Positions 3,168-16,560 of a stretch of DNA of 37,641 nucleotides are shown piece after piece. The notes below the pieces were generated by a model. The model had not been told where the DNA came from. It ran no database searches and saw only the letters and a list, made by a program, of their open reading frames with translations. Numbering within the stretch: position 1 is the first letter of the stretch; each line of letters begins with the position of its first letter. The stretch covers positions 64,001 through 101,641 of IMG/VR virus record IMGVR_UViG_3300012347_000366. One strand, 5' to 3'. The translations under genes and the position numbers were made by a program. The DNA comes from a virus. Taxonomy: Duplodnaviria; Heunggongvirae; Uroviricota; Caudoviricetes.

Positions 3168-3599
3168 TTATATAAACCTAGAGAAAAATGAGTTGTGTGT
3201 AGAGGTTGGTACGGCTTTATCACCATGAACGTGCTTTTCGCGCTGCAATTCAATCCATCGCTGCTGTTTAGGTTCGGAACCTACTTGAGGAGCTTTTCCA
3301 TAAATGGCGTGTAGCGCTACATGATGCGGATTACATAGGGTGTAAACCTTGTCATATAACTCTATTTTATGCTCTTCAATAAATTCATCACGAACAGCTA
3401 AAATGCCTTCGTCAGTTGATATATCGTAACCTTTTCTATCAGCCCACGTTTCTAAAAGTATTGTGATTGAATGTAAATGATGCAGTTCTAAGTCTTTATC
3501 AGTATCGCAGATAAAGCACTGAGATTTTTTATCGTATGCTGCCTTCGCTCGGTCGCGAACCCACTTAACTGGGATACGTTTATTTGTGTTCTTGGCCAT
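3168..3599 (-). CDS. T5-type nicking endonuclease (HNH-like, Zn-binding)
   Basis: CxxC..LELHH...TLCxxHHxxLH pattern; same position between TerL and portal as the T5 nicking nuclease gene. Confidence 0.75.
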   Translation of the reverse strand: MAKNTNKRIPVKWVRDRAKAAYDKKSQCFICDTDKDLELHHLHSITILLETWADRKGYDISTDEGILAVRDEFIEEHKIELYDKVYTLCNPHHVALHAIYGKAPQVGSEPKQQRWIELQREKHVHGDKAVPTSTHNSFFSRFI

Positions 3600-3740: not shown

Positions 3741-4322
3741 ATGGCTTCCGGAATCTATAGGCTAACCTTTTCAAGTGGCAAGTTTTATATTGGCAAATCA
3801 CTTGACCTCGAAACACGCTGGAAACAGCATTTTAATAAGTTCGCAACTGGTAAAGCTGCCAAACCCATGCAAGTAGAGTATGATCGTTGTGGACTACCCA
3901 CAACCGAGGCAATTTTCCATTGTCACCAAGATCACATTGATATCATGGAAGAGTGGTTGATTGACCAGTTTAAGTGCGGCGATATGTTAAATACCACGTA
4001 TCCCAAGCTAGATCGCACAGATGAAGTTGCAGAACTTATCAACAACAATCGCGAGCTACTCAATTTGTGTACTTGGGACCACTTGAAACTTATCTCCAAT
4101 GCCGAACAGCGTATTCGTGATGCTAGTACAGCAAAACTCGAAGCTGAAAGTGCGCTAGAAAATTACAAAGATAATGGTTATATTATTGACCAAGACTACA
4201 AGGATTTGTTAGCACTCACCAACGAGTTCAAGACCAGATACTTTGACCACAAAACTGAGCTGCAGCGATTGCAAAAGCTTGGCTGGTGGGACAGACTTTT
4301 TAATTACAAAGTATATGTGTAA
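3741..4322 (+). CDS. GIY-YIG nuclease with C-terminal coiled coil
   Basis: SGIY-x10-FYIGKS-x5-RWxQH; own promoter and SD; antisense to the late operon, overlaps TerL 3' end by 19 nt. Confidence 0.8.
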   Translation: MASGIYRLTFSSGKFYIGKSLDLETRWKQHFNKFATGKAAKPMQVEYDRCGLPTTEAIFHCHQDHIDIMEEWLIDQFKCGDMLNTTYPKLDRTDEVAELINNNRELLNLCTWDHLKLISNAEQRIRDASTAKLEAESALENYKDNGYIIDQDYKDLLALTNEFKTRYFDHKTELQRLQKLGWWDRLFNYKVYV

Positions 4323-6180: not shown

Positions 6181-6380
6181 GATTGCGGTGTGTTACGGCA
6201 CCGTAGGTGTTTTCGGATTTATTTCAAATAGGCCGCGTGTGGGTGGGTGGCATAGCATATGTGTAAACTTTAGTCTACTAACCGCCCCCGGTCTGTGAAC
6301 GAAAGTTTACATAGGGTAAACCCCTAGAAAATAATTGCATAAATCCTTGCATGATGCGAATTCTTTGATATAATACATAC

Positions 6381-6554
6381 ATGACAACGAAACAAGACTA
6401 CAAAGAAGCCTGCAAGGTGATCGAAGCCCGTGACCCTACAGCCTACAGCATTGTGCAACAAGATGAAAAACATTTTTCTGCGCGAGTTGGCCGTTGCATT
6501 GCTTATTATGTTATAATTGACAATCAAATCATTGGAGCTGTTTGGTATGAATAA
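6381..6554 (+). CDS. First pre-early hypothetical protein (57 aa, leaderless)
   Basis: MTTKQDYKEACKV...; ATG 6 nt after TATAAT at 6369-6374. Confidence 0.65.
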   Translation: MTTKQDYKEACKVIEARDPTAYSIVQQDEKHFSARVGRCIAYYVIIDNQIIGAVWYE

Positions 6555-6642
6555 GATTAAAGAATTTTTGGACTTGGCACTGTGCATGGGTTGCATTGCC
6601 CTTCCGTTCGTGTTATACTTTGCTTTTGTAATGAAGCCTTGA
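6547..6642 (+). CDS. Small membrane peptide (31 aa)
   Basis: MNKIKEFLDLALCMGCIALPFVLYFAFVMKP; start overlaps the upstream gene end. Confidence 0.45.
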   Translation: MNKIKEFLDLALCMGCIALPFVLYFAFVMKP

Positions 6643-6679
6643 CCCTTTCCCTAACCTTGACCTTTCAGGAGATTTTAAA

Positions 6680-7003
6680 ATGACTGCTAAAACTGTGAAC
6701 TACACCCCCGAGCAAACCGCACAAATGGTTGCTGACTACCAAGCCGGGACAACTGTTGAGACTATTGCCCAAGCACTGGGTAAAACTGTGCGCTCTGTTG
6801 TTGCCAAGCTCTCACGCGAGAAGGTTTATAAAGCTAAAACTTATGTTTCCAAGACTGGCGAGACAGTAATTAAAAAGGATGCAGTTGCCGATTACATTGG
6901 TGATGCACTGGGCTTGGGTGAAGCTGATGTTGAATCGCTAACCAAAGCAAACAAAACTGCATTGAAAGCGATTGCAGACTTTATCAAGGCTGAAAAGACC
7001 TGA
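6680..7003 (+). CDS. A2: T5 A2-like DNA-binding protein, paralog 1
   Basis: NYTPEQT..YQAG...LGKTVRSVVAKLSREKVY..KT...KKD; resembles T5 A2 (SVRSKL...AYQK...RKA); strong AGGAG SD. Confidence 0.7.
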   Translation: MTAKTVNYTPEQTAQMVADYQAGTTVETIAQALGKTVRSVVAKLSREKVYKAKTYVSKTGETVIKKDAVADYIGDALGLGEADVESLTKANKTALKAIADFIKAEKT

Positions 7004-7009
7004 TAGACT

Positions 7010-7035
7010 GTAGGGGCTTTATGCCCCTACTTTTT
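7010..7035 (+). terminator. Intrinsic terminator
   Basis: GTAGGGGC/GCCCCTAC stem + TTTTT. Confidence 0.85.
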
Positions 7036-7053
7036 CTGTGATATAATTGCATC

Positions 7054-7185
7054 ATGAACACAAATCAATACATTGTTTGGAATATGTCGGGCGCATACTA
7101 TGACGCACTCATGAATAGTTGCCCTGCTTGGGTTTGGACAGATAGCGAATTTGAAGATTATTTTCAGATGATGACAGGGGCATAA
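7054..7185 (+). CDS. Hypothetical 43-aa protein (leaderless)
   Basis: ATG 6 nt after TATAAT 7042-7047. Confidence 0.5.
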   Translation: MNTNQYIVWNMSGAYYDALMNSCPAWVWTDSEFEDYFQMMTGA

Positions 7186-7186
7186 C

Positions 7187-7303
7187 ATGAAAAAGATTTA
7201 TGAAAAAGAATACTTGAAAAACCCAGAAAAATGGGATGTTCGCTTTGTTGGGTTTGATGATGACGGTACACCGTGGGCAATGGTAAAAAGGATAAAGAAA
7301 TGA
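7187..7303 (+). CDS. Hypothetical 38-aa protein
   Basis: Fills the gap and couples to the next gene via ATGA overlap. Confidence 0.5.
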   Translation: MKKIYEKEYLKNPEKWDVRFVGFDDDGTPWAMVKRIKK

Positions 7304-7620
7304 AACAATTTATTGATTATCTCAAATTAAAAAAGCCCGTTACAATCCGGATTATTCCCCGTAAAAATTCTGAATGTGATGCCGAATATGAGGCAGAATA
7401 TACAGAACGTGGCAAACTGTGTGAGCACGTTATTACTATTTATACAAAAAATCCAACAAGGGATTTTGAGGTATTAATTGCCCATGAATTAATCCATGCG
7501 TGGCAGGAGGAAAAGAAATTAACCGAAACTCACGGGCCAGCGTTTATTAAATATGCGCGCAAAATGGAAAAAGATTTTGGTTTGCGTGAAATTTATATTG
7601 ATGGAATTGACGAAGAATAG
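7300..7620 (+). CDS. SprT-like zinc metalloprotease domain protein
   Basis: LIAHELIHAWQ...HGPAF motif (HEXXH + distal His). Confidence 0.7.
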   Translation: MKQFIDYLKLKKPVTIRIIPRKNSECDAEYEAEYTERGKLCEHVITIYTKNPTRDFEVLIAHELIHAWQEEKKLTETHGPAFIKYARKMEKDFGLREIYIDGIDEE

Positions 7621-7630
7621 AAACCAAGGT

Positions 7631-7704
7631 TTGCAAACAAAAATGAATACTTTTGTTTGCAAGTTGGCGCCAATATTATACCACATAATATTGGCCGGTG
7701 TCAA
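7631..7704 (-). repeat. Antisense promoter-hairpin module, copy 1
   Basis: TTGACA-N18-TATAAT (7704-7675), GGCGCC, then 12-bp hairpin 7631-7642/7651-7662. Confidence 0.8.
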
Positions 7705-7848
7705 GGGTTTGTGCGAAAAAACAACGAATTTAATTGTAACAGTCGCAGAAAATTGTTACACTTTATTTTGTGGAAATTAGGGAAACATGGGGACAATCAG
7801 GGAAAATCCGTGTATAATTGATACATCAACACAGAACAGAGGTTCAAA

Positions 7849-8325
7849 ATGGCAAAGATTACTAAAGTTAGCATTTACGACATGGATGGTACTATTGTTT
7901 GCAGTTTGCACAGATACCGCACAATCGTTGACGATAATGGTGAACGTATTGATTTGAATTATTGGAGAGAAAACGAATATCGCGCAATGGATGATTCATT
8001 ATTGCCATTGGCTAGCCAATATCGCCGTGATTTGCAAGATGAAAATACTTTTGTGATTATCGCTACTGCCCGTGTTTTGCGTGAAGCTGATAATACATTT
8101 ATTCGTGATATTCTCGGTGAGCCTGATTATATTATCTCACGCATGGATGGTGATACTACTTCAGGCGGTAAATTGAAAATCGCTGGTTTGGCTAAATTCT
8201 TTAATCTCAAGAATTTCAAAGATGCTGAATTTACATTTTATGAGGATAATACCACTTATTTAAAAGCGGTTTGTGACCGATTCAATATCCGTGGGGTTTA
8301 TGTCCCAAGCAAACAAGGTCACTAA
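7849..8325 (+). CDS. dmp: HAD-family deoxynucleoside 5'-monophosphatase (T5 Dmp-like)
   Basis: IYDMDGTIVCSLHR (DxDGT + S.HR as in T5 Dmp), IATAR, FYEDN motifs; pre-early position. Confidence 0.75.
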   Translation: MAKITKVSIYDMDGTIVCSLHRYRTIVDDNGERIDLNYWRENEYRAMDDSLLPLASQYRRDLQDENTFVIIATARVLREADNTFIRDILGEPDYIISRMDGDTTSGGKLKIAGLAKFFNLKNFKDAEFTFYEDNTTYLKAVCDRFNIRGVYVPSKQGH

Positions 8326-8376
8326 TATATAATCCCTTCGGGGATTATATAATCAAATTAATCTGGAGAATATATA

Positions 8377-8688
8377 ATGCTGCCAAAACACGTTCTTGAT
8401 TTTGTTATTCCTGAAATTGAACGCCGTCAAACTAAACGCGATAATACCATCACTGAATATAATAAATGCGTGGCTGAATATAAAGCACTGCCTGCATTTA
8501 AAAGATTCTTTACAAGTCACCCTGAAAATGATTATTGGCATTTTGGCGAATACTGGCTTAATGAATTAAAAGCGATTCGCCGTGAAGCTGAATATAAACA
8601 CAAAATGGATTATCCAAGAATGGACATTCCAAAAGAATGGCATAATCTTTTTTATGCGTGGGCGCAAGATAATAATATTCCGTTTTAA
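8377..8688 (+). CDS. Hypothetical pre-early protein
   Basis: 103-aa ORF with GGAG SD. Confidence 0.7.
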   Translation: MLPKHVLDFVIPEIERRQTKRDNTITEYNKCVAEYKALPAFKRFFTSHPENDYWHFGEYWLNELKAIRREAEYKHKMDYPRMDIPKEWHNLFYAWAQDNNIPF

Positions 8689-8700
8689 TTGGAGAATCAA

Positions 8701-8898
8701 ATGAAATTTGGCAAACTTGAAATCAAGGGATATAATAAAATCACATATTCTGGGCAATATATATATATGCCTCACGTTATAATCTGGAGAGCATTTTGGG
8801 CAGTTCCATATTATGTTTTAACTGTTTTGATTTATATTGTTTTGTTAATTGGTCAAGGCAAAGATACTGCCGATGATTATATTGGTAATATTCAATAA
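8701..8898 (+). CDS. Small membrane-associated hypothetical protein
   Basis: GGAG SD before ATG 8701; hydrophobic segment FWAVPYYVLTVLIYIVLLIG. Confidence 0.6.
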   Translation: MKFGKLEIKGYNKITYSGQYIYMPHVIIWRAFWAVPYYVLTVLIYIVLLIGQGKDTADDYIGNIQ

Positions 8899-8908
8899 TA
8901 CTACTTTT

Positions 8909-8985
8909 GTTTGCAAACCAAAAATGAATACTTTGGTTTGCAAACTTGCGCCAAAATTATATCATATAATTTTAGGCCGTGTCAA
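8909..8985 (-). repeat. Antisense promoter-hairpin module, copy 2
   Basis: TTGACA-N18-TATAAT (8985-8956), GGCGC, 14-bp hairpin 8909-8922/8932-8945 with a compensatory change versus copy 1. Confidence 0.8.
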
Positions 8986-9053
8986 GCTTTTTCGTATAAC
9001 TTATTTTTCGTGTGTGATTAAAAAGCAACACAATTTTGTGGTACAATGTCAGC

Positions 9054-9437
9054 ATGGACAAAAAAGCCTTATTAAAGCACTTGAAACTCGAAACTGTAAT
9101 GATTTGGGATTCACTTTGCGAAATTTATACACCTTTGGTTCACTACAATGAACCAAAAATAGAACTTAACCCTTATTTTTGGCGTTGTGCCGGTGCGTGT
9201 TTTCAAAAAGAAAACCGCATACAAATGGGTTACAAATTCTTTAAAGCTAATACATCATATTTCCATTATATGATTGATGTAATACTTCCGCATGAAATAA
9301 TCCACCAAGCGGATTATAATCTTTTCGGAGAATCTGAAAAAATTTGTGGTCACGGTGAAAAATGGTGTGAAATCATGGTACAATATGGTCTTGACGCTAA
9401 CCCGCATCATACAATGGAGATTTCAAAAAATGCTTAA
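9054..9437 (+). CDS. SprT-like zinc metalloprotease (leaderless)
   Basis: RCAGAC...VILPHEIIH...GHGEKWCEIM; ATG 6 nt after TACAAT 9042-9047. Confidence 0.75.
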   Translation: MDKKALLKHLKLETVMIWDSLCEIYTPLVHYNEPKIELNPYFWRCAGACFQKENRIQMGYKFFKANTSYFHYMIDVILPHEIIHQADYNLFGESEKICGHGEKWCEIMVQYGLDANPHHTMEISKNA

Positions 9438-9645
9438 TATCTTGAGTTGGTTTGGTACTTTTGTTTCAATTTTGGGTTCGTTTGCAGTTGCAAGCGCAAT
9501 GTTTAAAATTGGATATGTTTTGTTTACTTTTGGTTCACTTTCGTGGCTGATTGTAGCCTTTTGTAAACGTGACAAGGCATTGGGTGTACTAAATGGCACT
9601 TTTTTCTGTGCCAACTTGTTGGGAATTTACAACAACTTTTTTTAA
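9430..9645 (+). CDS. Three-helix membrane protein (half-transporter-like)
   Basis: 71 aa, three hydrophobic segments. Confidence 0.65.
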   Translation: MLNILSWFGTFVSILGSFAVASAMFKIGYVLFTFGSLSWLIVAFCKRDKALGVLNGTFFCANLLGIYNNFF

Positions 9646-9756
9646 AATAATTTTGGGTTTTTCTGGTTTTTCCGCAAAAACCTGATATAATTAATTCATT
9701 GGAGCAAAACGCTACAATCTGCGAATTCCGGCAGTATCCGGTAATGTGAGAACCAA

Positions 9757-10455
9757 ATGGCTAAAAAACAATTTTTCTGTATTCTTGACACCGAAACCAC
9801 AATGGCCGATACCGTGGCCGATTTTGCAATGATTATTGTTGACCGTGAGGGCAAAATTTATAATCAATGCGCTGTTTTAGTTGCCGGGCATTATGGCACT
9901 CACGAATTATTCCACGATAAGGCGGCCAACGATATTTGGGGTTATGCGGGTTTGGAAAAACGTAAATCCAACTATGTTAATATGTTAGATAATGGCATTC
10001 GCATGGTGGCTTCAGTTAATGCCATTAATAAATGGATTAATCAAGCCATTGGCAAATATAATCCACAATTGACTGCATATAATCTGGCATTTGATAAATC
10101 AAAATGCCTTAATACTGGAATTGATTTATCTGGCTTTACTCAAGAATTTTGTTTGTGGCAAGCCGCCGTGGGCAATATTTGCAATAAAAAACAATATCGT
10201 CAATTTGCCCTTGATAATCACGCATTTAACAAAGTTACTCAAAATGGTAATATGACGTTTCAAACTAATGCGGAAATTGTTTGTGGTTTTATTAATGGCG
10301 AGTTTATCAAAGAACCGCATACCGCATTAGAAGATGCCCGTGATTTTGAATTGCCTATTCTCAAAAGCATACTCAAAAAACGTGACTGGAAAGATAATAT
10401 CAAACCATATTCATGGCGCGATTTTCAAACCAAAAACTGGTTTGTTGCAAAATAA
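9757..10455 (+). CDS. DEDDh 3'-5' exonuclease
   Basis: ILDTETT (ExoI), AYNLAFD (ExoII), HTALEDA (ExoIII). Confidence 0.85.
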   Translation: MAKKQFFCILDTETTMADTVADFAMIIVDREGKIYNQCAVLVAGHYGTHELFHDKAANDIWGYAGLEKRKSNYVNMLDNGIRMVASVNAINKWINQAIGKYNPQLTAYNLAFDKSKCLNTGIDLSGFTQEFCLWQAAVGNICNKKQYRQFALDNHAFNKVTQNGNMTFQTNAEIVCGFINGEFIKEPHTALEDARDFELPILKSILKKRDWKDNIKPYSWRDFQTKNWFVAK

Positions 10456-10460
10456 ATAAT

Positions 10461-10483
10461 ATCAGGGGCTAATAACCCCTGAT
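10461..10483 (+). terminator. Hairpin terminator
   Basis: ATCAGGGG/CCCCTGAT stem after exonuclease stop. Confidence 0.65.
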
Positions 10484-10500
10484 TATTTGGAGATAATCAA

Positions 10501-10653
10501 ATGCGGTATTTTTATTTTTTCTTGAATATGTTATTGGTTCCTGTACATTTTATTTTGTGCATTTGTTTTTATATTCCTAATGCTTTTACAAGGGCATACT
10601 GGGAAACTCTGGAAGCAATAAAAGAAACCAAACGGATTCACGGCATTAAATAA
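10501..10653 (+). CDS. Small hydrophobic protein (50 aa)
   Basis: GGAG SD; MRYFYFFLNMLLVPVHFILCICF... Confidence 0.5.
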   Translation: MRYFYFFLNMLLVPVHFILCICFYIPNAFTRAYWETLEAIKETKRIHGIK

Positions 10654-10667
10654 TTGGAGAATATCAA

Positions 10668-10916
10668 ATGGAAACTATTGGCTGGATTGGTGGCATTTTA
10701 TTGGCATTTTGCGGATTACCTCAGGCCGTAGAATCATACAAAACAAAAAACTCTGATGGATTAACTTGGGGATTTTTGATTATGTGGGGCGTGGGAGAAT
10801 TATTTACAATTGTTTATATTATCCCAAAATGGCATTGGCCCCTGATATTTAATTATACGGCAAACATAATATTTATTTCAATAATTGTATATTATAAAGT
10901 CAGGGGTAAAAAATGA
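10668..10916 (+). CDS. PQ-loop / SemiSWEET-family membrane protein
   Basis: 82 aa, 3 TM helices, GLPQAVESYKTKNSDGLTW (PQ motif). Confidence 0.85.
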   Translation: METIGWIGGILLAFCGLPQAVESYKTKNSDGLTWGFLIMWGVGELFTIVYIIPKWHWPLIFNYTANIIFISIIVYYKVRGKK

Positions 10917-11035
10917 TTGAAACATTATTATATATACTAGACTTTATCAGTATTATGTGCATTATGATAATAATATACATAATATGGCTGATTGTATTAA
11001 AAAGATAATCCAAGCCCCATGTGGGGCTTTTGGCA

Positions 11036-11126
11036 TTTTGAAAACAAAAGTACTCACCACAAAAATGAATACTTTTGTTTTCAAAACTGCGCCAATATTA
11101 TACCACATAATTTGTGCCCGTGTCAA
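11036..11126 (-). repeat. Antisense promoter-hairpin module, copy 3
   Basis: TTGACA-N18-TATAAT (11126-11097), GGCGC, 17-bp hairpin 11036-11052/11070-11086. Confidence 0.8.
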
Positions 11127-11444
11127 GGAAAAAATGCAAATAATTTGGTTTTTGTTACAATTTATTTTTTAAAAAATCACGGTTTTTGTGGTATAATTGA
11201 TTGTGCGCGCCAAAAATTTTTGTGTACTTTTGTTTTCAGATATTACTGCAAACCCAGGTACTCAGAAATATTTTTACATTTATTTTTGTGCGCTTGCCCA
11301 AACTGGCAAAACCCGTGTATAATAGACCCTATGGCAGACAATGATCGGATTGTCTGACAAGGCAAGAAAAAATAAATTTTCTTTTTTCTTGCCAAATGCT
11401 CAAAACGTGATATAATAGAATCTTCAACAACAAAGGAAAGCAAA

Positions 11445-11780
11445 ATGGCTGAAAAGACTAGCAAAACTGTCAACTACACTCCAGAACAATCCGCTCAAAT
11501 GGTGGCCGATTATCAGGCGGGTGTCACCGTGGAAGCAATCGCTGAAAGCCTGGGCAAAACTGTCCGGTCGGTGGTGGCAAAATTGAGCCGTGAAAAAGTG
11601 TACGTGGCTAAAACCTACGTTTCCAAAACTGGCGCTCCAGTAGTCAAAAAAGATGCTCATGCTGATGCAATCGGCGCGATTCTCAAAATGACTGAGGCTG
11701 AAATCGAAAGTCTTACAAAAGCCAATAAAACGGCATTGGAAAAGATTTTCGGCGCATTGGCAAATTCTAAGCCAATCTAA
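11445..11780 (+). CDS. A2: T5 A2-like protein, paralog 2
   Basis: Long identical blocks with paralog 1 (TVNYTPEQ, LGKTVRSVVAKLSREKVY, ESLTKANKTAL). Confidence 0.75.
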   Translation: MAEKTSKTVNYTPEQSAQMVADYQAGVTVEAIAESLGKTVRSVVAKLSREKVYVAKTYVSKTGAPVVKKDAHADAIGAILKMTEAEIESLTKANKTALEKIFGALANSKPI

Positions 11781-11821
11781 TGTATAATGGGGGCTAGACC
11801 CCCATTTTTAAAGGAAACTAA

Positions 11822-12073
11822 ATGCTTTTCAATTTGCCCTCATTTGCTGATAAACCCGTGATTCTGACATTTGCCCAAATTGGCATTAATCCAAGCGATT
11901 ATAATGGCTGGACATTTGACAAAATTCGTCCAGAATATATTAATATCGCAACCGATTATATGTGCGATTTTACTGGAGATTATGATTATGAGATTTTTCA
12001 ACATTATGAATGGGAAATTGATTATCTTAATCAACTGATTAAAATTCCACGTTCTGCATTACTGGGGGATTAA
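11822..12073 (+). CDS. Acidic/aromatic hypothetical protein
   Basis: 83-aa ORF with AAGGA SD. Confidence 0.65.
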   Translation: MLFNLPSFADKPVILTFAQIGINPSDYNGWTFDKIRPEYINIATDYMCDFTGDYDYEIFQHYEWEIDYLNQLIKIPRSALLGD

Positions 12074-12074
12074 A

Positions 12075-12269
12075 ATGGCAAAATACCGCATTGTTAAAGT
12101 CGCAAGATATGAATCAGTTTATTCGATTCAAGTTAAACGCTGGTTTATATGGTGGGATATTGGTCGTGCCCTTTGCTTAAAAGATGCTGAATCTGATATT
12201 GAATGGTTCAAAAACCGTGATAAAGCGATTCGAGATAATCCCCGAGATATTGTTGTCAAAACATATTAA
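12075..12269 (+). CDS. Hypothetical protein
   Basis: 64-aa ORF followed by terminator 12273-12300. Confidence 0.65.
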   Translation: MAKYRIVKVARYESVYSIQVKRWFIWWDIGRALCLKDAESDIEWFKNRDKAIRDNPRDIVVKTY

Positions 12270-12315
12270 AATAAACCCCGATTATGTCGGGGTTTTATTT
12301 TGCCCATTATCTTTT

Positions 12316-12405
12316 GTAATACTTTTGTTTTCAGAAAAAATAAGAAACAAAAGTATTACTTTTGGCTGCGCCAAAATTATACCATAATTTTGTGGCCCGT
12401 GTCAA
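12316..12405 (-). repeat. Antisense promoter-hairpin module, copy 4
   Basis: TTGACA-N18-TATAAT (12405-12376), GGCGC, 15-bp hairpin 12316-12330/12345-12359. Confidence 0.8.
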
Positions 12406-12640
12406 GCCTTGTTACAAACTGTTACATCTGCTGTTGTTTTTTGACCACTTGGCACGATTCTTGCGCCAAAACCGGCCGGTCATAATTATACTGTACGGTG
12501 CAGTTTGTGACTGCTCAGTATAGTTTTTGACTGCACGGTCTGGTCGCTGACCATCGGGTAATTGAGTACTTTGGTACTCAGCAGGTGTGCACCTGCGCCA
12601 AAGTGGAAATCCTTTACAAGTGCAAAATCTCAGCGGTTGT

Positions 12641-12679
12641 GCGCGCCAAATTATAAGTGCGAATCCTTTAGTGTGTCAA
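12641..12679 (-). promoter_or_regulatory. Antisense promoter, copy 5 (different downstream RNA)
   Basis: TTGACA-N18-TATAAT then TTGGCGCGC. Confidence 0.7.
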
Positions 12680-12751
12680 GTGCAAATCTTTGAATTTGAA
12701 AAATTTTTTTGAAAAATGTTATAATACATTATTGATTGAAAGGAATAGCAC

Positions 12752-12883
12752 ATGACAACAGCCGATTTTTTCGCAGATTTTGACACAGAATACTATTCGG
12801 AATTTGTGGAGCACGAACTGTCGCAAATTTTCCAATGCACTATCCCACAAGACGAAAAATCTGCTCTTGATGTTCCATTCTAA
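12752..12883 (+). CDS. Acidic 43-aa peptide ending in DVPF
   Basis: AAGGA SD; MTTADFFADFDTEYYSEFVEHELSQIFQCTIPQDEKSALDVPF. Confidence 0.6.
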   Translation: MTTADFFADFDTEYYSEFVEHELSQIFQCTIPQDEKSALDVPF

Positions 12884-12932
12884 TCTTGATATAATTATTA
12901 CTTAAACAGCGCAGAAACCAACTAAAGGACAT

Positions 12933-13244
12933 ATGATGACTAAAGCAACTCAAACTAATTACACACCAGAACAAACTCAGGAACTCGTTCAAGGCTACCA
13001 AGCTGGCGAGACCGTGGAAGTTTTGGCCAACAAACTCGGCAAAACTGTTCGCTCAGTAGTGGCCAAGCTTGCACGTGAAGGCGTGTACCAAGCTAAAACC
13101 CGTGCTCAAGGCCAAGCCCGCGTGCGTAAATCGGAGCTGGTTGACAAACTTGCCCTGGCCTGCGGCGTGGCTCCAGAAGTGTTTGAATCGCTTGAAAAAG
13201 CCAACCACGATGTGCTGGAAGCACTTGTGGCACACATGGCCTGA
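12933..13244 (+). CDS. A2: T5 A2-like protein, paralog 3
   Basis: NYTPEQT..YQAG..LGKTVRSVVAKLAREGVYQAK..RKSEL..ESLEKAN. Confidence 0.75.
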   Translation: MMTKATQTNYTPEQTQELVQGYQAGETVEVLANKLGKTVRSVVAKLAREGVYQAKTRAQGQARVRKSELVDKLALACGVAPEVFESLEKANHDVLEALVAHMA

Positions 13245-13310
13245 TGGCTGTGGTTGAGGGTCAAGAAATATTGGCTTGATCCTCACAGCAAATTCAAGTA
13301 TAATATATAC

Positions 13311-13449
13311 TTAGACAGTCGGGAAGGGCTTAATGAATACCAAACGATCATATCAGTTGGTGCCCGTTCCGTAACAGCAGCCCACCCCACTAAACAGCAA
13401 TTGAATTGCAATCATCTGTGTGGCTAGTCTGGTTACAACGACTGTCTAA
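13311..13449 (+). ncRNA. Candidate 139-nt ncRNA
   Basis: Starts 7 nt after TTGATC-N17-TATAAT (13276-13304); closed by perfect 11-bp stem TTAGACAGTCG/CGACTGTCTAA; no ORF. Confidence 0.55.
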
Positions 13450-13493
13450 ATTATTCACTTGATTATATAGTAAAACTACTGTATAATAGATAT

Positions 13494-14046
13494 ATAGATT
13501 GGGTGACAGCGGCAGGGAACTACAGTACCGATAGCGTCTTAATTGTGGAGAAGTCCGAGCCACAGCCCTTAGCTCTCATAATAGAGTACTTTGACTAGGC
13601 ATAGGTTGCTAGTGTAATAATCGTGAAGGTGCAGCAAGACCGCCTCTGCAGGGGCCTTAAGTGTCTTCCACGTGGATCGAAAGCGTACAATAGAATTTGC
13701 AAAGTATTTTATTATGGGCGTTATGAGACCAACGTATTGTTGGATAACAACTTGATGACCACCGAAATATCTCTAGTGGTCGCCCACCAACCCTCTGATG
13801 AGCTGATGCAATTTCAGCGAAACTCACAGTGTCGTGTCAATTGTGCGAGTGATTCCCAACACTCCAATTGCTGCAACTGTGGGTCAGGACGAAAACCCAC
13901 GATAACGAAAACTGGTTGTAAGATTAATTTGTTGGCAATTGCTTCGGCATCTCCTAGCAAAGGTATCCTACATAAACTTAGTAGTGCTGTGGTAATGAGT
14001 AGTGCTAGTGAACAGTTACTATATAAACTGTCGCCTTATCTGGTAC
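13494..14046 (+). ncRNA. Candidate large structured ncRNA (about 550 nt)
   Basis: Promoter TTGATT-N17-TATAAT 13459-13487; GGTGACAG(13502)/CTGTCGCC(14028) end pairing; many internal hairpins; no credible ORF. Confidence 0.45.
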
Positions 14047-14093
14047 CGGCGTAAAATGGTCTTGGCTCTAGAGTGGTAGACTTATAATTACCC

Positions 14094-14347
14094 GACCCTA
14101 AGCTGTGGCAAGTCGTTAACCCTCAACCAGTCGACCCCTAAGTCGTTAAAAGCCGCTGTTTTGGACTAAATGTAAAGTCGCCTCCCTGATGTGGTGGAAA
14201 AGAGTTGGACATAACCACTCAAACAGCGTTGTCCCGCACAGACCCTAAACCGTAGCCGGTATGGCCCCCGTTACTCGTGGCCCGACCCCCAAGTCGTTAA
14301 AAGCAGTGCGCAACACTGTGAAAGCCGACAAAGCCCAAAGTCGTGAA
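14094..14347. repeat. Direct-repeat cluster (injection-stop-signal-like position)
   Basis: 22-bp repeat CGACCCC(T/C)AAGTCGTTAAAAGC at 14132 and 14283; AAGTCG at 14110, 14140, 14175, 14291, 14338. Confidence 0.65.
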
Positions 14348-14536
14348 AAATGTGGTGGGCAGCAGTGCCGAACCAATACTCAAAGTCTCACCTGATATCA
14401 GCTACAACACCCATAACCTAACAGGTGTCTAAGGTGCTATATCTTAGGGTCAAGCAGTAAGTCCAGGTGGTACCTGGCGGTTTAGTCTTGAAGCGAGCAA
14501 CTAAAAACATCAGCCCCTGCTCGAGCAGAAATGTTC

Positions 14537-14572
14537 AAAAGCCCCACACGATTCGCGGTCGGTGGGGCTTTT
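14537..14572. terminator. Bidirectional terminator
   Basis: AAAAGCCCCAC...GTGGGGCTTTT. Confidence 0.75.
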
Positions 14573-14590
14573 GTTTTGCCCAAAGCGCTC

Positions 14591-14626
14591 GGCGCCATTA
14601 TACCACAGTGCGAAACCTTGTGTCAA
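14591..14626 (-). promoter_or_regulatory. Antisense promoter, copy 6
   Basis: TTGACA-N18-TATAAT immediately followed by GGCGCC; runs into terminator 14572-14537. Confidence 0.7.
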
Positions 14627-14696
14627 GTGGGTTTTCAAAAATCTCTGACCCTAAGCTGCAGCAAATTACACAAATTGATCCCACTCACAGCACGCA

Positions 14697-14733
14697 AAAA
14701 AGCCCACTAATCGTTAGAGATTAGTGGGCTTTT
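14697..14733. terminator. Bidirectional terminator ending the leftward early operon
   Basis: AAAAGCCCACTAATC/GATTAGTGGGCTTTT. Confidence 0.8.
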
Positions 14734-14779
14734 GTCATATTAACCTAAATTATGTCGATTTAGGGTCAATTTTGTGCGA

Positions 14780-15103
14780 TTAAGTCGATTTAGGGTCAGG
14801 GTTTGGCACAGAAAGGCGCGATTCAATCAATTTAAGTACAACTTTGTTGACCTTTTCCAGCGATTCCAGCAATTCTAAATCGCAGTCGAGTAGGGTAGCA
14901 ATCCGCTCGATGTGTTCGGCTTTGCGAACCGGCACCTCGCCTCGTTTGTTAAGGTAGGTCTTTTTTTGGTAGACTCCGAGGCTGCTGAGCTTGGCAATAA
15001 TGCTGCGTTCTGGTAGGTCGAGCTGGCGAGCTATGTCACCAACGGGCACCTGAGCCTTGTAGTCGGCAACCATACGGTCAATGATTTCTTTGGTGTATTT
15101 CAT
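14780..15103 (-). CDS. A2-like protein, paralog 4
   Basis: KYTKEIIDRMVADYKA...RSIIAKLSSLGVYQKKTYLNKRG..RKAEH..LESLEKVNK aligns with paralogs 1-3. Confidence 0.75.
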   Translation of the reverse strand: MKYTKEIIDRMVADYKAQVPVGDIARQLDLPERSIIAKLSSLGVYQKKTYLNKRGEVPVRKAEHIERIATLLDCDLELLESLEKVNKVVLKLIESRLSVPNPDPKST

Positions 15104-15115
15104 GACTGTATCTCC

Positions 15116-15907
15116 TTACATCAACCAAGGCAAATCTGTACCGTCTGAGTACGATTTAGGCGGTTTTGGCGATTTAGGGTCAGGAGTTTTAAAAATTTCT
15201 GCACCTACCAGTGGTGGAGGCATTCGATCCCAATCATAGGGGTCTAAGACCATGTATTCCGATCGTAGACTAGGGTGTGCTACCCAGATTTGTGACAACA
15301 TTGTGGCTGCTAGTGCAGGAACGCTCGCATACTCTGTGTCTTTGATGCCTTTTAGACACCATTGCGAAGTAGGCTTCTGTACCTCACCCATTTTAGGGCC
15401 ACTTTTAATAGTCAAACCCTGAGTACGAATTTCAATTACTCGCTCTGACCCTAAGTTATAGCACTCGTCATCCCGCCACAACATAGCTTCTAAGAGGGCT
15501 TCGTCTACTAGCGGGCATCCTTCCTGAATATTCCACTGATTATAACCCACACCGTTGTATTTTTTCTGTGCGCATAAGATTAGTGGAACCAGTGCCGAAT
15601 AATTGGCATACTCTGGACGTGATTGTAATTTAACTAGGCTGCCGCGCTTGAGCTGGCAGGCAACACGCCACAGCCCAATATCCCAGGGCGTCACAATATT
15701 CTTTTTGGCTGTTAGCATAGGGTCGATCTTACCCTCAACTAACACTGGTGTCCAAGTAGCATAATGCGCTACAATTTGTGGTAACATCCACGAACTGTGA
15801 GCGCTTATATAATGTTCTTTGGTTGCAGCTTCTAGCTGGGTCTTGTTGAGTTTTTGGTACTCGTCAAATGGATACGCTTTAATATCCTGTGTTCTAAGTT
15901 TTAACAT
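15116..15907 (-). CDS. Hypothetical protein (263 aa) with Pro-rich tail ending DLPWLM
   Basis: Long ORF co-oriented with A2 paralog 4; no family recognised. Confidence 0.8.
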   Translation of the reverse strand: MLKLRTQDIKAYPFDEYQKLNKTQLEAATKEHYISAHSSWMLPQIVAHYATWTPVLVEGKIDPMLTAKKNIVTPWDIGLWRVACQLKRGSLVKLQSRPEYANYSALVPLILCAQKKYNGVGYNQWNIQEGCPLVDEALLEAMLWRDDECYNLGSERVIEIRTQGLTIKSGPKMGEVQKPTSQWCLKGIKDTEYASVPALAATMLSQIWVAHPSLRSEYMVLDPYDWDRMPPPLVGAEIFKTPDPKSPKPPKSYSDGTDLPWLM

Positions 15908-16212
15908 AAGGTTTCTGGTAATAGTATTGCTTTTGTAGCAAGCAAAAGGCTAGTGTGACCCTAAATCTGGGCGATCTAGAGCCTGGTGGTGAGAGGTGGG
16001 ACAAAAGTTTTGATCGATATATTTTTGCATATGCTTTAAAAACACCAAACACAATAATCCCAACTTAGCGGGTAACTTGGTCTGACTACCCGAATCAGAA
16101 AAAATATCTGCTGCTCACGCCCCCTCGCTCCGGAACTCCGCGGTGGGACTACAGCAAGAATTTTATTCAATTCGGTTGTCACCAAGTTTATATCATCTCT
16201 TAATATAACTAA

Positions 16213-16242
16213 ATTATAGCATACTAGGCAGCATATTGTCAA
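16213..16242 (-). promoter_or_regulatory. Promoter with about 300-nt leader for the 263-aa gene
   Basis: TTGACA-N18-TATAAT. Confidence 0.65.
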
Positions 16243-16299
16243 TGCCTAGATTTTTAGTGGAGGTAGCTACAAGATTTTTCTTATATCCAGGCTTCAGGA

Positions 16300-16560
16300 T
16301 TAGCCCTTGAGTAGTGCTTGTGCTTTGTTAACAATGTTGTTGCGACTTAGGGTCAAGTCAATCCAGCCCATTTGCTCAAGAACTCCGAGAATTGCAAGAA
16401 AATCTTCTAGTTCTCCGACAAGTTCTTGTTTGTTGGTAGTAGTGCGATCTGGGTGACGGTTCTGTTCACCAAAACGGTTGATTTTTGAAACCGCTTGAAT
16501 TACCTCAGCTGCTTCCTCCTGCAGCTTGCAGATTAAATATTGTGTTGGATTTGTGTTCAT
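16300..16560 (-). CDS. MazG-like NTP pyrophosphohydrolase
   Basis: KLQEEAAEVIQAVSK..RFG...N..ELVGELED motif. Confidence 0.7.
   Translation of the reverse strand: MNTNPTQYLICKLQEEAAEVIQAVSKINRFGEQNRHPDRTTTNKQELVGELEDFLAILGVLEQMGWIDLTLSRNNIVNKAQALLKG

Follow-up and report, generated by a model that had tools for sequence, protein, structure and literature searches.

Backward promoter-hairpin cassettes in the pre-early-like region of a T5 relative as possible two-way transcription barriers

Repeated cassettes whose promoters point against the surrounding genes were found in the window, the whole stretch of 37,641 nucleotides that was analysed. They are about 80-150 bp long and are built from CTTGACAC, an 18-bp spacer, TGnTATAAT, GGCGC and a perfect hairpin. 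Our preferred reading, held tentatively at a probability of about 0.38, is that the cassette is a portable two-way transcription barrier which produces only a short hairpin RNA. The same promoter-hairpin unit was found in at least 118 viral-contig loci, and a published account of backward promoter-hairpin cassettes was not found in the literature. The covariation of the -10 palindrome, the Watson-Crick hairpins with a shared core and the share of copies with a hairpin and T-run are new here, as are the match to the T5 repeat D and nick box and the nicking endonuclease homolog.

Promoters, genes and cassettes in the window

The source is an uncultured freshwater relative of phage T5 with a genome of 101,641 bases (101.6 kb), and the window holds its pre-early-like block. 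The window contains seven TTGACA-N18-TATAAT sites, every one of them on the minus strand; shuffled sequences predict 0.01. Six of these are CTTGACAC-N17-TATAAT sites (7704, 8985, 11126, 12405, 12679 and 14626); they fall within 7 kb of plus-strand genes and are the sole such sites across the whole genome. GGCGC follows TATAAT after 0-4 nt in all six and is missing from this position at the seventh site (16242). The first-pass annotation had reported these six promoters with their GGCGC boxes, and each was recovered where it had been placed. Its remark that spacers elsewhere are mostly 17 bp long agrees with the two remaining perfect promoters in the window, both of which have 17-bp spacers.

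The features are as follows.

7627-7710, minus strand: cassette 1 (class A), promoter, GGCGC, palindrome and hairpin, z -5.98
8899-8992, minus strand: cassette 2 (class A), promoter, GGCGC, palindrome and hairpin, z -5.06
11010-11130, minus strand: cassette 3 (class A), promoter, GGCGC, hairpin and terminator, z -8.39
12266-12410, minus strand: cassette 4 (class A), promoter, GGCGC, palindrome, hairpin and terminator, z -5.63
12643-12679, minus strand: cassette 5 (class B), perfect promoter and GGCGC
14537-14626, minus strand: cassette 6 (class B), promoter, GGCGC and terminator hairpin, z -3.80
12581-12632, minus strand: degenerate class-B unit without a -10 box, matching T5 repeat D, nick box and palindrome
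6680-13244, plus strand: pre-early-like gene block interrupted by cassettes (family matches)
6680-7003, 11445-11780 and 12933-13244, plus strand: A2-family proteins (family matches, phrog_1725)
7849-8325, plus strand: dmp homolog (family match)
7300-7620 and 9036-9437, plus strand: SprT-like proteins (family match)
3168-3599, minus strand: homolog of the nicking site-specific endonuclease of T5-like phages (sequence identity and gene position)

Judging by its dmp homolog and A2-family paralogs, the cassette region is a T5-like pre-early block. Family matches (A2 phrog_1725, SprT-like, dmp) show the plus-strand ORFs of 6680-13244 to be real genes, as had been assumed when the promoters were first called antisense. 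Each module of this block has one plus-strand TGnTATAAT promoter of its own. The phage encodes four A2-family paralogs, a label that is apt since T5 A2 and the A2-like proteins of the window share one PHROG; an A1 homolog was looked for in the source phage and was not found. All cassette promoters point toward terS, terL, portal and capsid (6066-43), and terS has its own promoter at 6115-6086.

The cassette hairpin starts no more than about 10 nt from the stop codon of the left-hand gene, and the cassette promoter lies back-to-back with the promoter of the right-hand module. For example, the hairpin of cassette 1 (7631-7662, loop GTATTCAT) starts 10 nt past the stop codon of a SprT-like gene (7618-7620), and is preceded on its own strand by the -35 box (7704-7699), the -10 box (7680-7675) and GGCGC (7671-7667), with a -10 palindrome of 11-bp arms at 7669-7695. 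Cassette 2 has its promoter at 8985-8956, GGCGC at 8952-8948, a -10 palindrome with 9-bp arms (8953-8973), a hairpin at 8909-8945 with no T-run after it, and an additional direct copy of the core motif at 8902-8918. In cassette 3 (promoter 11126-11097, GGCGC 11093-11089) a long AT-rich hairpin (11036-11086) is followed by a two-way GC terminator (11012-11029), and the predicted RNA is about 90 nt. Cassette 4 (promoter 12405-12376, GGCGC 12372-12368, -10 palindrome 12372-12392 with 9-bp arms) has a similar order, with an AT-rich hairpin at about 12317-12363, a two-way terminator at 12273-12295 and a predicted RNA of about 100-105 nt. The claim that copies 3 and 4 have genuine terminators is borne out, as both are GC-rich and lie beyond the AT-rich hairpins.

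The spacer of cassette 5 (promoter 12679-12650, GGCGC 12647-12643) contains GGATTCGCAC, the core of T5 direct repeat D. This cassette has no -10 palindrome and only a weak hairpin (z -2.0), and it stands back-to-back with a plus-strand promoter at 12696-12725. Cassette 6 (promoter 14626-14597, GGCGC 14596-14592) carries GGTTTCGCAC within its spacer and a two-way terminator hairpin at 14537-14573, from which an RNA of about 50-85 nt is predicted. Terminator-like hairpins end copies 1, 3, 4 and 6. The degenerate unit shows the order CTTGTA, GGATTTCCAC, TTTG, GCGCAGG and the palindrome GCAGGTG..CACCTGC (12581-12596). On the plus strand, a unit at 11168-11245 has its own promoter, directly followed by the antisense of the core motif.

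The first-pass annotation had also described hairpins downstream of copies 1-4, compensatory stem changes and a AGTATTCATTT segment in copies 1-3. All three were observed, with z-scores of -5.1 to -8.4 for the four hairpins. Its placement of the -10 box in an inverted repeat holds for copies 1, 2 and 4; copy 3 has only an imperfect repeat of 5 bp with one mismatch.

The cassette family in related phages

Every related genome examined has several copies of the unit, all on one strand and in one cluster. In about 970 kb of related loci we found 246 unique TTGACA-N18-TATAAT sites, compared with 10, 47 and 1 sites with spacers of 16, 17 and 19 bp, and GGCGC was present at 232 of the 246. Promoter function looks to be under selection, since the six sites are perfect and unique to the region and the 18-bp spacer is in excess in related loci. 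By crude ORF calls, an ORF on the opposite strand faces about 78% of the copies, and the median distance to its end is 87 nt. Behind the -35 box, at 55-100 nt, there is a gene-sense TATAAT in 64% of copies and 30% of controls.

Of 193 class-A copies, 106 (55%) have a hairpin with a T-run in the next 160 nt, as do 43 of 600 control windows (7%), and in the copies these ends group around 36 nt and around 80-95 nt. The predicted products are therefore short RNAs of about 35-105 nt. Since more than half of the family stops at such a hairpin and T-run within about 35-95 nt, short of the upstream coding region, long antisense shut-off of genes, as once suggested, is unlikely to be the main role. The proposed multicopy promoter-hairpin family is supported: its compensatory stem variation is real, and the family is conserved in more than 100 related contigs. 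The A/T tract of the -10 palindrome (class A, as in copies 1-4, with copy 3 imperfect) covaries in six states, and the 0-4 nt distance from GGCGC to the -10 box is mirrored in the spacer palindrome.

A possible transcription barrier and its alternatives

Once the DNA enters the cell, host sigma70 RNA polymerase would bind the cassette promoters very tightly and initiate RNA against the gene direction. In most copies it would stop after about 35-105 nt, at the hairpin and T-run or at the two-way terminator of the upstream gene, so the product would be a short 5'-hairpin RNA and the main effect local. Head-on polymerase traffic, together with hairpin folding in transcripts of either strand, would form a two-way barrier. 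Such a barrier would hold each module to its own promoter and prevent rightward pre-early transcription from reaching the injection-stop-like end. We take the GGCGC box to be equivalent to the nick box of T5, and virion DNA may be nicked there as well; for the rightward genes this would be a break in the template strand, and it would strengthen the barrier.

This reading is favoured by the perfection of the sites, the N18 excess, the orientation, the predicted short transcripts, the strand-equal hairpins, the back-to-back layout and the pre-early location. Against a barrier, a plain terminator insulates more cheaply, and copies 3 and 4 already have one; in addition, about 45% of copies lack a T-run, and a search of metatranscriptome contigs yielded no usable evidence on the cassettes. 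The geometry also counts against it: a rightward polymerase would meet the promoter-bound polymerase before transcribing the hairpin, so that the two parts cannot form one composite terminator. The covarying -10 palindrome is left without explanation, as is the conserved AGTATTCA core, which is displayed on 16 different, perfectly paired stems and suggests a sequence-specific reader.

The short RNAs may themselves be the product, a possibility that we rate below the barrier. Here the cassettes would encode a multicopy small-RNA family whose hairpin displays the core to a protein or a complementary RNA. The RNAs might act as a sponge or decoy, as lambda OOP-like antisense to the 3' ends of upstream messages, or by pairing in trans with the leader carrying the antisense motif at 11168-11245. 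The core, GAAAC(A/C)(A/U)(A/G)AGUAUUCA, is conserved in 74 unique copies and always in promoter sense. A strong promoter, structured RNA and terminator also make up the architecture of an sRNA gene, and several perfect promoters could yield thousands of RNAs within minutes. However, the downstream hairpins (mean z-score -4.4) are nearly perfectly Watson-Crick paired: mismatches in 143 hairpins are few and not skewed toward wobble pairs (GT 6, AC 7, other 11), and folding energy is equal between strands (90 copies favour one, 98 the other). An RNA under selection on a single strand does not usually look like this, and nothing therefore marks the RNA of this strand alone as the selected molecule. 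The core also lies in the loop of some copies and in the stem interior of others, and the hairpins of sub-clades elsewhere in the family are quite different, so any reader must change along with them. No Rfam family, CRISPR repeats included, reached threshold, which speaks against a small-RNA family and leaves the suggested CRISPR-repeat mimic unsupported.

T5 nicks are dispensable. It is doubtful that GGCGC mainly marks programmed T5-type minus-strand nicks, made by the encoded HNH nickase, with promoter and hairpin as accessories. A nick in the non-template strand at the start site might ease melting of unsupercoiled injected DNA, bound RNA polymerase might shield it, and the rightward genes might be halted by a nick in their template strand. 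The three T5 major nicks examined in AY587007 sit on GCGCAGGG, all on the minus strand. Positions 12592-12612 repeat the layout of T5 nick 1 (repeat D core, 4 nt, GCGCAGG, then a palindrome directly after), a repeat-plus-box pattern with 0 matches expected by chance, and 15 related loci hold 18 unique units of this pattern, each on the same strand as the promoters. We regard the degenerate unit as the counterpart of the T5 7.9% major-nick site and as a candidate nick site. The gene at 3168-3599, between terL and portal as in T5-like phages, encodes a protein 44% identical to the 'nicking endonuclease' of Vibrio phage 234P1 and 34-36% identical to products annotated as nicking endonuclease in coliphages and Salmonella phages, which makes it a candidate enzyme for GCGC nicks. 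These two features lend indirect support to the nicks at GCGCC that were proposed earlier. GGCGC is also retained in 60 of 70 class-B copies without a -10 palindrome and in array units without a -10 box, and TTGGCGC occurs 14 times on the minus strand and twice on the plus strand genome-wide. Outside the cassette region, however, little of this strand bias is left: the 7-mer stands at 6 to 1, and TGGCGCA shows none. Most cassettes read GGCGC(A/C) and lack the T5 RGG tail, T5 and 234P1 have the nickase yet no such promoters, and a GC-rich stretch after the -10 box can also be read as a promoter discriminator.

It is unlikely that the cassettes are multiplied injection-stop units, in which host RNA polymerase on the perfect promoters, or A2-family proteins at CTTGACAC or the repeat D core, would hold the first-transferred DNA until pre-early proteins release it for second-step transfer. 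Their confinement to the pre-early block, the repeat D core in class-B spacers and the four A2-family paralogs are consistent with this, and T5 palindromes E, G, H and I (AAATGAGAATCATT...) reappear as cassette hairpins in some relatives. Of the 45 contig ends near a promoter, 42 break just behind the last one. Nevertheless, T5 has no promoters at its injection-stop region, the cassettes lie between every module and not at a single place, and the missing A1 homolog also counts against it.

Still less probable is control by antitermination, as at lambda PR'-tR' or nut, where only a short RNA would be made early and a later phage factor at the -10 palindrome or RNA hairpin would permit leftward reading that silences the pre-early genes and feeds the late operon (terS onward) on the same strand. 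Lambda Q binds between -35 and -10, where the cassettes have a palindrome; a terminator immediately follows the strong promoter, a conserved-loop hairpin lies just past the start as in nut boxB, and all copies aim at the late genes. Yet terS has a promoter of its own, six copies up to 8.5 kb upstream across several two-way terminators are unlike known cases, and an N- or Q-like protein was not identified.

Least probable of all are recombination substrates or selfish repeats like PeSLs, which would persist by shuffling gene modules with no dedicated regulatory role and have their perfect palindromes maintained by template-switch correction: the copies of a single genome share 77-88% of their sequence, relatives arrange the genes between cassettes differently (in one of them the 9036-9645 gene follows another cassette) and quasi-palindrome correction can mimic covariation, but alignments do not break at cassettes more often than expected (38 of 605 ends, with 9.7% expected) and the exact -35, TG, -10 and 18-bp spacer kept in more than 200 diverged copies need selection on polymerase binding.

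Relation to known systems

Convergent-promoter interference and short antisense RNAs are known in phages from coliphage 186 pR/pL and lambda OOP RNA. There, too, a strong promoter faces a gene 3' end, and the outcome is a short terminated RNA, polymerase collisions head-on, or both. Each of those systems is a single locus whose regulatory targets are known, whereas the cassettes number 3-6 or more per genome, have a conserved core motif in common and overlap sequence that is mostly untranslated. GC-rich 'stringent' discriminators are found at rRNA and tRNA promoters, such as rrnB P1 (TATAAT-GCGCCACC). The cassettes likewise have GCGC directly or closely after a consensus -10, and some relatives read TGGCGCCACC. 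In contrast, their GCGC distance varies and is mirrored in the spacer palindrome, and the remaining promoter elements are consensus, so that stable and not short-lived complexes are expected.

The PeSL (promoter-early stem-loop) cassettes of T4-type phages (Arbiol et al. 2010, PMC2839356; Comeau et al. 2014, PMC4122927) likewise combine a stem-loop with a sigma70 promoter in a small unit that is repeated. Both kinds separate small accessory early genes, in a variable region whose gene modules differ among relatives. The PeSL promoter runs with the genes and drives the next ORF, whereas the cassette promoter opposes the genes and drives none; the GGCGC box and -10 palindrome belong to the cassettes, which also lack enrichment of recombination break points.

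Repeat Region 3 of T5/BF23, the injection-stop region, contains direct repeat D and palindromes E-J as well as the 7.9% major nick (GenBank AY587007 annotation; Davison 2020, bioRxiv 10.1101/866236). In T5 the nick alone is established by experiment. It shares with the cassettes the same-strand order TTG(T/A)C-GGATT(T/C)GCAC, R-GCGC(AGG) and palindromes, a position at the far end of the pre-early block and the same genes (dmp, A2 family, nickase). T5 differs in having no -10 box there and no TTGACA-N18-TATAAT anywhere, and it has one such locus per repeat, whereas the cassettes stand between every module.

Minus-strand promoter cassettes in the pre-early block

The window contains seven TTGACA-N18-TATAAT sites, all of them on the minus strand; 0.01 occurrences are expected from shuffled sequences. 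At six of the seven sites the promoter starts with CTTGACAC and GGCGC follows 0-4 nt past the -10 box, and these six are the only promoters of this type in the entire 101,641-base record. All six match the sigma70 consensus at 12 of 12 positions with an 18-bp spacer, five of them with a TGn extended -10 element, and they are distributed over 7.6-14.6 kb. The first-pass annotation described them as perfect promoters set backward among plus-strand genes, which is borne out both by the count and by the family matches of the genes. Each promoter, with its GGCGC box and hairpin, forms one cassette.

Cassettes of the window: promoter position, strand, class, element found and folding z-score
Copy 1, 7704, minus strand, class A: AT hairpin and a weak T-run; z -6.0
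Copy 2, 8985, minus strand, class A: hairpin, terminator absent; z -5.1
Copy 3, 11126, minus strand, class A: two-way terminator of the upstream gene; z -8.4
Copy 4, 12405, minus strand, class A: two-way terminator of the upstream gene; z -5.6
Copy 5, 12679, minus strand, class B: terminator absent; z -2.0
Copy 6, 14626, minus strand, class B: two-way terminator; z -3.8

The plus-strand genes around the cassettes include three phrog_1725 proteins (the family to which T5 A2 belongs), a dmp homolog at 7849-8325, dmp being a pre-early gene in T5, and two SprT-like proteins; a T5 A1 homolog was searched for and not found. To the left of the cassettes, the minus strand carries terS, terL, an HNH protein, portal and a protease-capsid fusion. 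The prohead protease and major capsid protein are apparently fused in one 638-aa ORF (window 43-1959, minus strand), and are separate genes in T5 and its Vibrio relatives. Among isolated phages, Demerecviridae of Vibrio and Aeromonas come nearest, with protein identities of 35-50% (the closest TerL, 50% identical, is from Vibrio Demerecviridae), and near-mode and distant-mode searches of the phage collection gave no DNA match to isolates. Together these results indicate that the source phage is a distant, uncultured T5 relative. DNA runs in which portions of this region occur carry the labels freshwater, sediment or plain metagenome, mostly with small shares.

A scan of IMG/VR for the full motif gave at least 118 loci, most with several copies on one strand. 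The order terL, terS and then divergent pre-early genes with cassettes is common to the related contigs (67-88% identity), and circularly assembled relatives have one cassette cluster only. Among the loci listed, which cover about 970 kb and were picked by the cassette motif itself, 246 unique perfect promoters have an 18-bp spacer and 10, 47 and 1 have spacers of 16, 17 and 19 bp, respectively. GGCGC is present on 232 of the 246. About 78% of copies in these loci face an opposite-strand ORF, the end of which lies a median 87 nt off according to a crude ORF caller. As judged from the sequences, selection demonstrably maintains each sigma70 contact and the 18-bp spacer; the fixed GGCGC, the perfect hairpin, the antisense orientation and confinement to the pre-early block are established properties of the cassette. 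No published description of this cassette class was found. A bidirectional promoter using the mirrored -10 box was considered and rejected, the sole -35-like hexamer on the other strand lying 21-22 bp off.

Class A, represented by copies 1-4 and by 193 of the 263 unique copies among the loci listed, has a -10 box that forms the right arm of an 8-14 bp palindrome, for example GCCAAAATTATA-TGN-TATAATTTTGGC. Six forms of the A/T tract that separates TATAAT from GG are seen in this class (none, T, TT, TTT, TTTT and ATT), and the palindrome centre shifts by 1 nt between copies. Covariation was assessed by tract matching and chimera controls. The exact complement of the tract was observed before ATTAT in the spacer of 168 of the 193 copies, and native arms average 10.4 bp compared with 8.4 bp in chimeras, the evidence from short tracts being partly circular because copies were assigned to class A by having arms of 8 bp or more. 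Copy 3 has an imperfect palindrome. In class B (copies 5 and 6) the palindrome is absent and the spacer contains GGATTCGCAC or GGTTTCGCAC, the core of T5 direct repeat D, which reads TTGTCGGATT(T/C)GCACA on the minus strand. GGCGC is retained in 60 of 70 class-B copies among the loci listed and also in tandem units that have no -10 box (consensus CTTGACAAGGTTTTGCACTGGCGCAG).

The left-hand gene's stop codon and the start of the hairpin are no more than about 10 nt apart, and a gene-sense TATAAT is located 55-100 nt behind the -35 box in 64% of copies compared with 30% of controls. The perfect promoter and the next module's weaker TGnTATAAT promoter therefore stand back-to-back. Between these two promoters, cassettes 1, 3 and 4 have TTGTTACA / TGTAACA boxes (7735-7760, 11152 and 12409-12426), arranged either as an inverted pair or as a direct pair with 10-bp spacing, which are a candidate operator of the promoter pair. 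Another repeat, TTAGGGTC / GACCCTAA, occurs 24 times genome-wide, far above 8-mer expectation; its copies, among them those at 14094-16355 and 6173 of the window, cluster round the non-coding region and the A2-like gene at 14780-15103. Together with the three copies of AGTCGTTAA at 14111-14300, these repeats look like iterons or operators.

Expression over 6300-14700 was checked in two freshwater metatranscriptome runs together with two further runs, one of DNA and one probably of DNA. The contigs, which are strandless and startless and derive from relatives 90-95% alike, give the cassettes no special cover, a result that speaks neither for nor against their transcription. Contigs of the two freshwater metatranscriptome runs pile up over the ORF-poor stretch 13606-14448 to a summed, strandless depth of about 140-1800; elsewhere in 6300-14700 the summed depth is mostly below 100.

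Hairpins, predicted RNA ends and transcription between modules

The 70 nt past GGCGC fold with a mean z-score of -4.4 relative to shuffles, and folding is symmetric between strands, with 90 copies better on one strand and 98 on the other. Stems of the 143 unique hairpins are mostly 10-13 bp with loops of 3-8 nt, and mostly start 5-9 nt past the first G of GGCGC. Mismatches in these stems are rare and have no G-T bias (6 GT, 7 AC and 11 other), which argues for selection or template-switch correction on DNA or on both transcripts and not on a single-strand RNA alone.

A hairpin with a T-run within 160 nt was found in 106 of 193 class-A copies compared with 43 of 600 control windows, and the predicted RNA ends cluster about 36 nt and about 80-95 nt past the -10 box. 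The AT-rich hairpins have 0-4 GC pairs, and a T-run follows them in 55% of copies when read in promoter sense, compared with 35% when read in gene sense; copies 3, 4 and 6 have canonical terminators separate from the AT-rich hairpin. Because such early stops are predicted in over half of the class-A copies, a long antisense RNA over the genes is not the designed outcome in most copies, and antisense shut-off by such an RNA, as suggested earlier, is probably not their chief function.

We tentatively propose, with a probability of about 0.38, that the cassette is a two-way transcription barrier between modules. Host polymerase would bind tightly on DNA entry, a short RNA of about 35-105 nt, beginning at GGCGC or close to it, would be made from the cassette promoter, and the effect would be local. 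Such a barrier makes sense of the promoter orientation, the location at gene ends, the immediate stop and the symmetry of the stems between strands; the -10 palindrome and the conserved core are left unexplained. If the proposal is true, this compact barrier would be a useful genetic part. A composite terminator of rightward transcription, made of hairpin plus roadblock, was rejected on geometry, as the collision would precede transcription of the hairpin.

The conserved core bears on a serious rival that is compatible with the barrier, namely that the cassettes express a functional small-RNA family. The core, GAAAC(A/C)(A/T)(A/G)AGTATTCA, was observed in 74 unique copies of the window's sub-clade, always in promoter sense, and the perfectly complementary stems on either side of it come in at least 16 different versions, among them GCCCACAGAAA, TCGCAAA, AAATGAGAAA and TTGCAAACCAAA. 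The covarying hairpin stems noted by the first-pass annotation are thus real; in copies 3 and 4 the core is located inside the stem. Other sub-clades have different cassette palindromes, and a 9-nt match at 13333, considered as a trans target of the loop, is at chance level. Only tRNAs reach the threshold of Rfam 15 in the window, the best weak matches in 6300-14800 being far below the gathering threshold with CRISPR repeats included, and a CRISPR-repeat-like RNA is therefore not upheld. Overall, a small-RNA function is rather unlikely. A plus-strand non-coding unit at 11168-11395, upstream of an A2-family gene, comprises a promoter (TTTAAA-N18-TGGTATAAT), GCGCGCC, the core in antisense (TACTTTTGTTTTC) and a long A/T-stem hairpin at about 11360-11395, and its RNA could pair with the cassette RNAs.

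Relation to the nicks and injection-stop region of T5

Programmed nicks are the other serious rival, less probable than a small RNA and likewise compatible with the barrier. Three major T5 nicks, read in AY587007, fall on CCCTGCGC (minus-strand reading GCGCAGGG). T5 has six copies of this motif; of the four on the minus strand, three are these nicks and one is in the right terminal repeat. In the window, the minus strand at 12592-12612 reads GGATTTCCAC-TTTG-GCGCAGG with an adjoining palindrome at 12581-12596, and T5 nick 1 reads GGATTTGCAC-AAAA-GCGCAGG, also followed by a palindrome. This pattern of repeat-D core and nick box has no chance expectation in the window, and 18 unique units of this type were found in 15 of the loci listed, all on the promoter strand. 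The full R-GCGC-RGG box is present only at 12592-12599 (GGCGCAGG), and the G-GCGC of the six promoters is followed by AG, AA, CA, CG or GC. Dense palindromes and repeats fill 12440-12560, between cassette 4 and the nick-like unit (CCGGCCGG; ACTGTACGGTGCAGT with GACTGCACGGTC; GAGTACTTTGGTACTC).

The repeat D core GGATT(T/C)GCAC is found on the minus strand as GGATTCGCAC in the copy 5 spacer, GGTTTCGCAC in the copy 6 spacer and GGATTTCCAC at 12603-12612. As in the T5 injection-stop region with its direct repeat D, the core keeps one orientation and lies among untranslated repeats where the pre-early block ends. Furthermore, AAATG(A/C)GAAT(C/G)ATTC.CATTT serves as the cassette hairpin in some relatives (loci L025, L070, L077 and L100). 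T5 palindromes E, G, H and I and direct repeat C, which adjoin the 7.9% nick (L125:9468-9637, the T5 record), belong to this family too. The ORF at 3168-3599 shares 44% identity with the 'nicking endonuclease' of Vibrio phage 234P1 and 34-36% with genes of T5-like coliphages and Salmonella phages annotated as nicking endonuclease; it lies between terL and portal, as in T5-like phages, and is, as named by annotation, a putative phage nicking endonuclease homolog. A GIY-YIG (homing-endonuclease-like) ORF at 3741-4322 on the plus strand sits between terL and this homolog, on the opposite strand. With the shared repeat-D/GCGC/palindrome layout and the nickase homolog, the cassettes look like promoter-bearing relatives of the T5 nick/injection-stop unit. 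TTGACA-N18-TATAAT was not found in T5 or in Vibrio phage 234P1.

A stronger version, which we regard as quite improbable, is that the cassettes are multiplied, promoter-bearing injection-stop/nick units in which a virion nick at G|GCGC and a caught host RNA polymerase would physically stop transcription and DNA entry after the first step, with A2-family proteins bringing release. The nick would fall at the start site of the perfect promoter, on the template strand of the rightward genes. If true, this would give a mechanism for the long-unexplained T5 nicks and the injection stop signal; the halt of T5-type entry after the first 8% and the purpose of the site-specific nicks are questions some fifty years old. 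In the freshwater clade, the repeat-D/GCGC/palindrome unit is joined to unmistakable host promoters and repeated between all the first-expressed modules. A silent T5 sequence feature thereby acquires a predicted, readable activity, namely polymerase binding, a short RNA and possibly a nick, all testable in vitro with E. coli enzymes and cloned DNA and with no phage culture.

A brake on DNA transfer formed by polymerase or A2 is still less likely. In the related loci L007-L124, 45 contig ends are less than 1 kb from a cassette promoter; 42 of them lie behind the last promoter, on the side away from terS, and no shared terminal sequence was found there. This position may mark the boundary of a terminal repeat, the end of a genome or a hypervariable stretch. 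A Chi-like reading of (C)TGGCGC, the orientation of which would suit RecBCD entry from the left end, was set aside, since both T5 pre-early Chi sites are on the opposite strand.

Module break points and PeSL cassettes

Antitermination toward the late operon, which the minus-strand promoters face, is placed lower again, below the barrier, small-RNA and nick readings as are the brake and recombination. A mainly recombinational role is the least probable of all: module order does differ in one related locus (L102), and alignment ends are not enriched at cassettes (38 of 605, with 9.7% expected). The PeSL cassettes of T4-type phages sit at insertion, deletion and replacement break points between relatives. 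In PeSL, a stem-loop precedes an early promoter that has the orientation of the next ORF and drives it, whereas in the cassettes described here the perfect promoter is antisense to both flanking genes and a weaker, separate plus-strand promoter drives the ORF.
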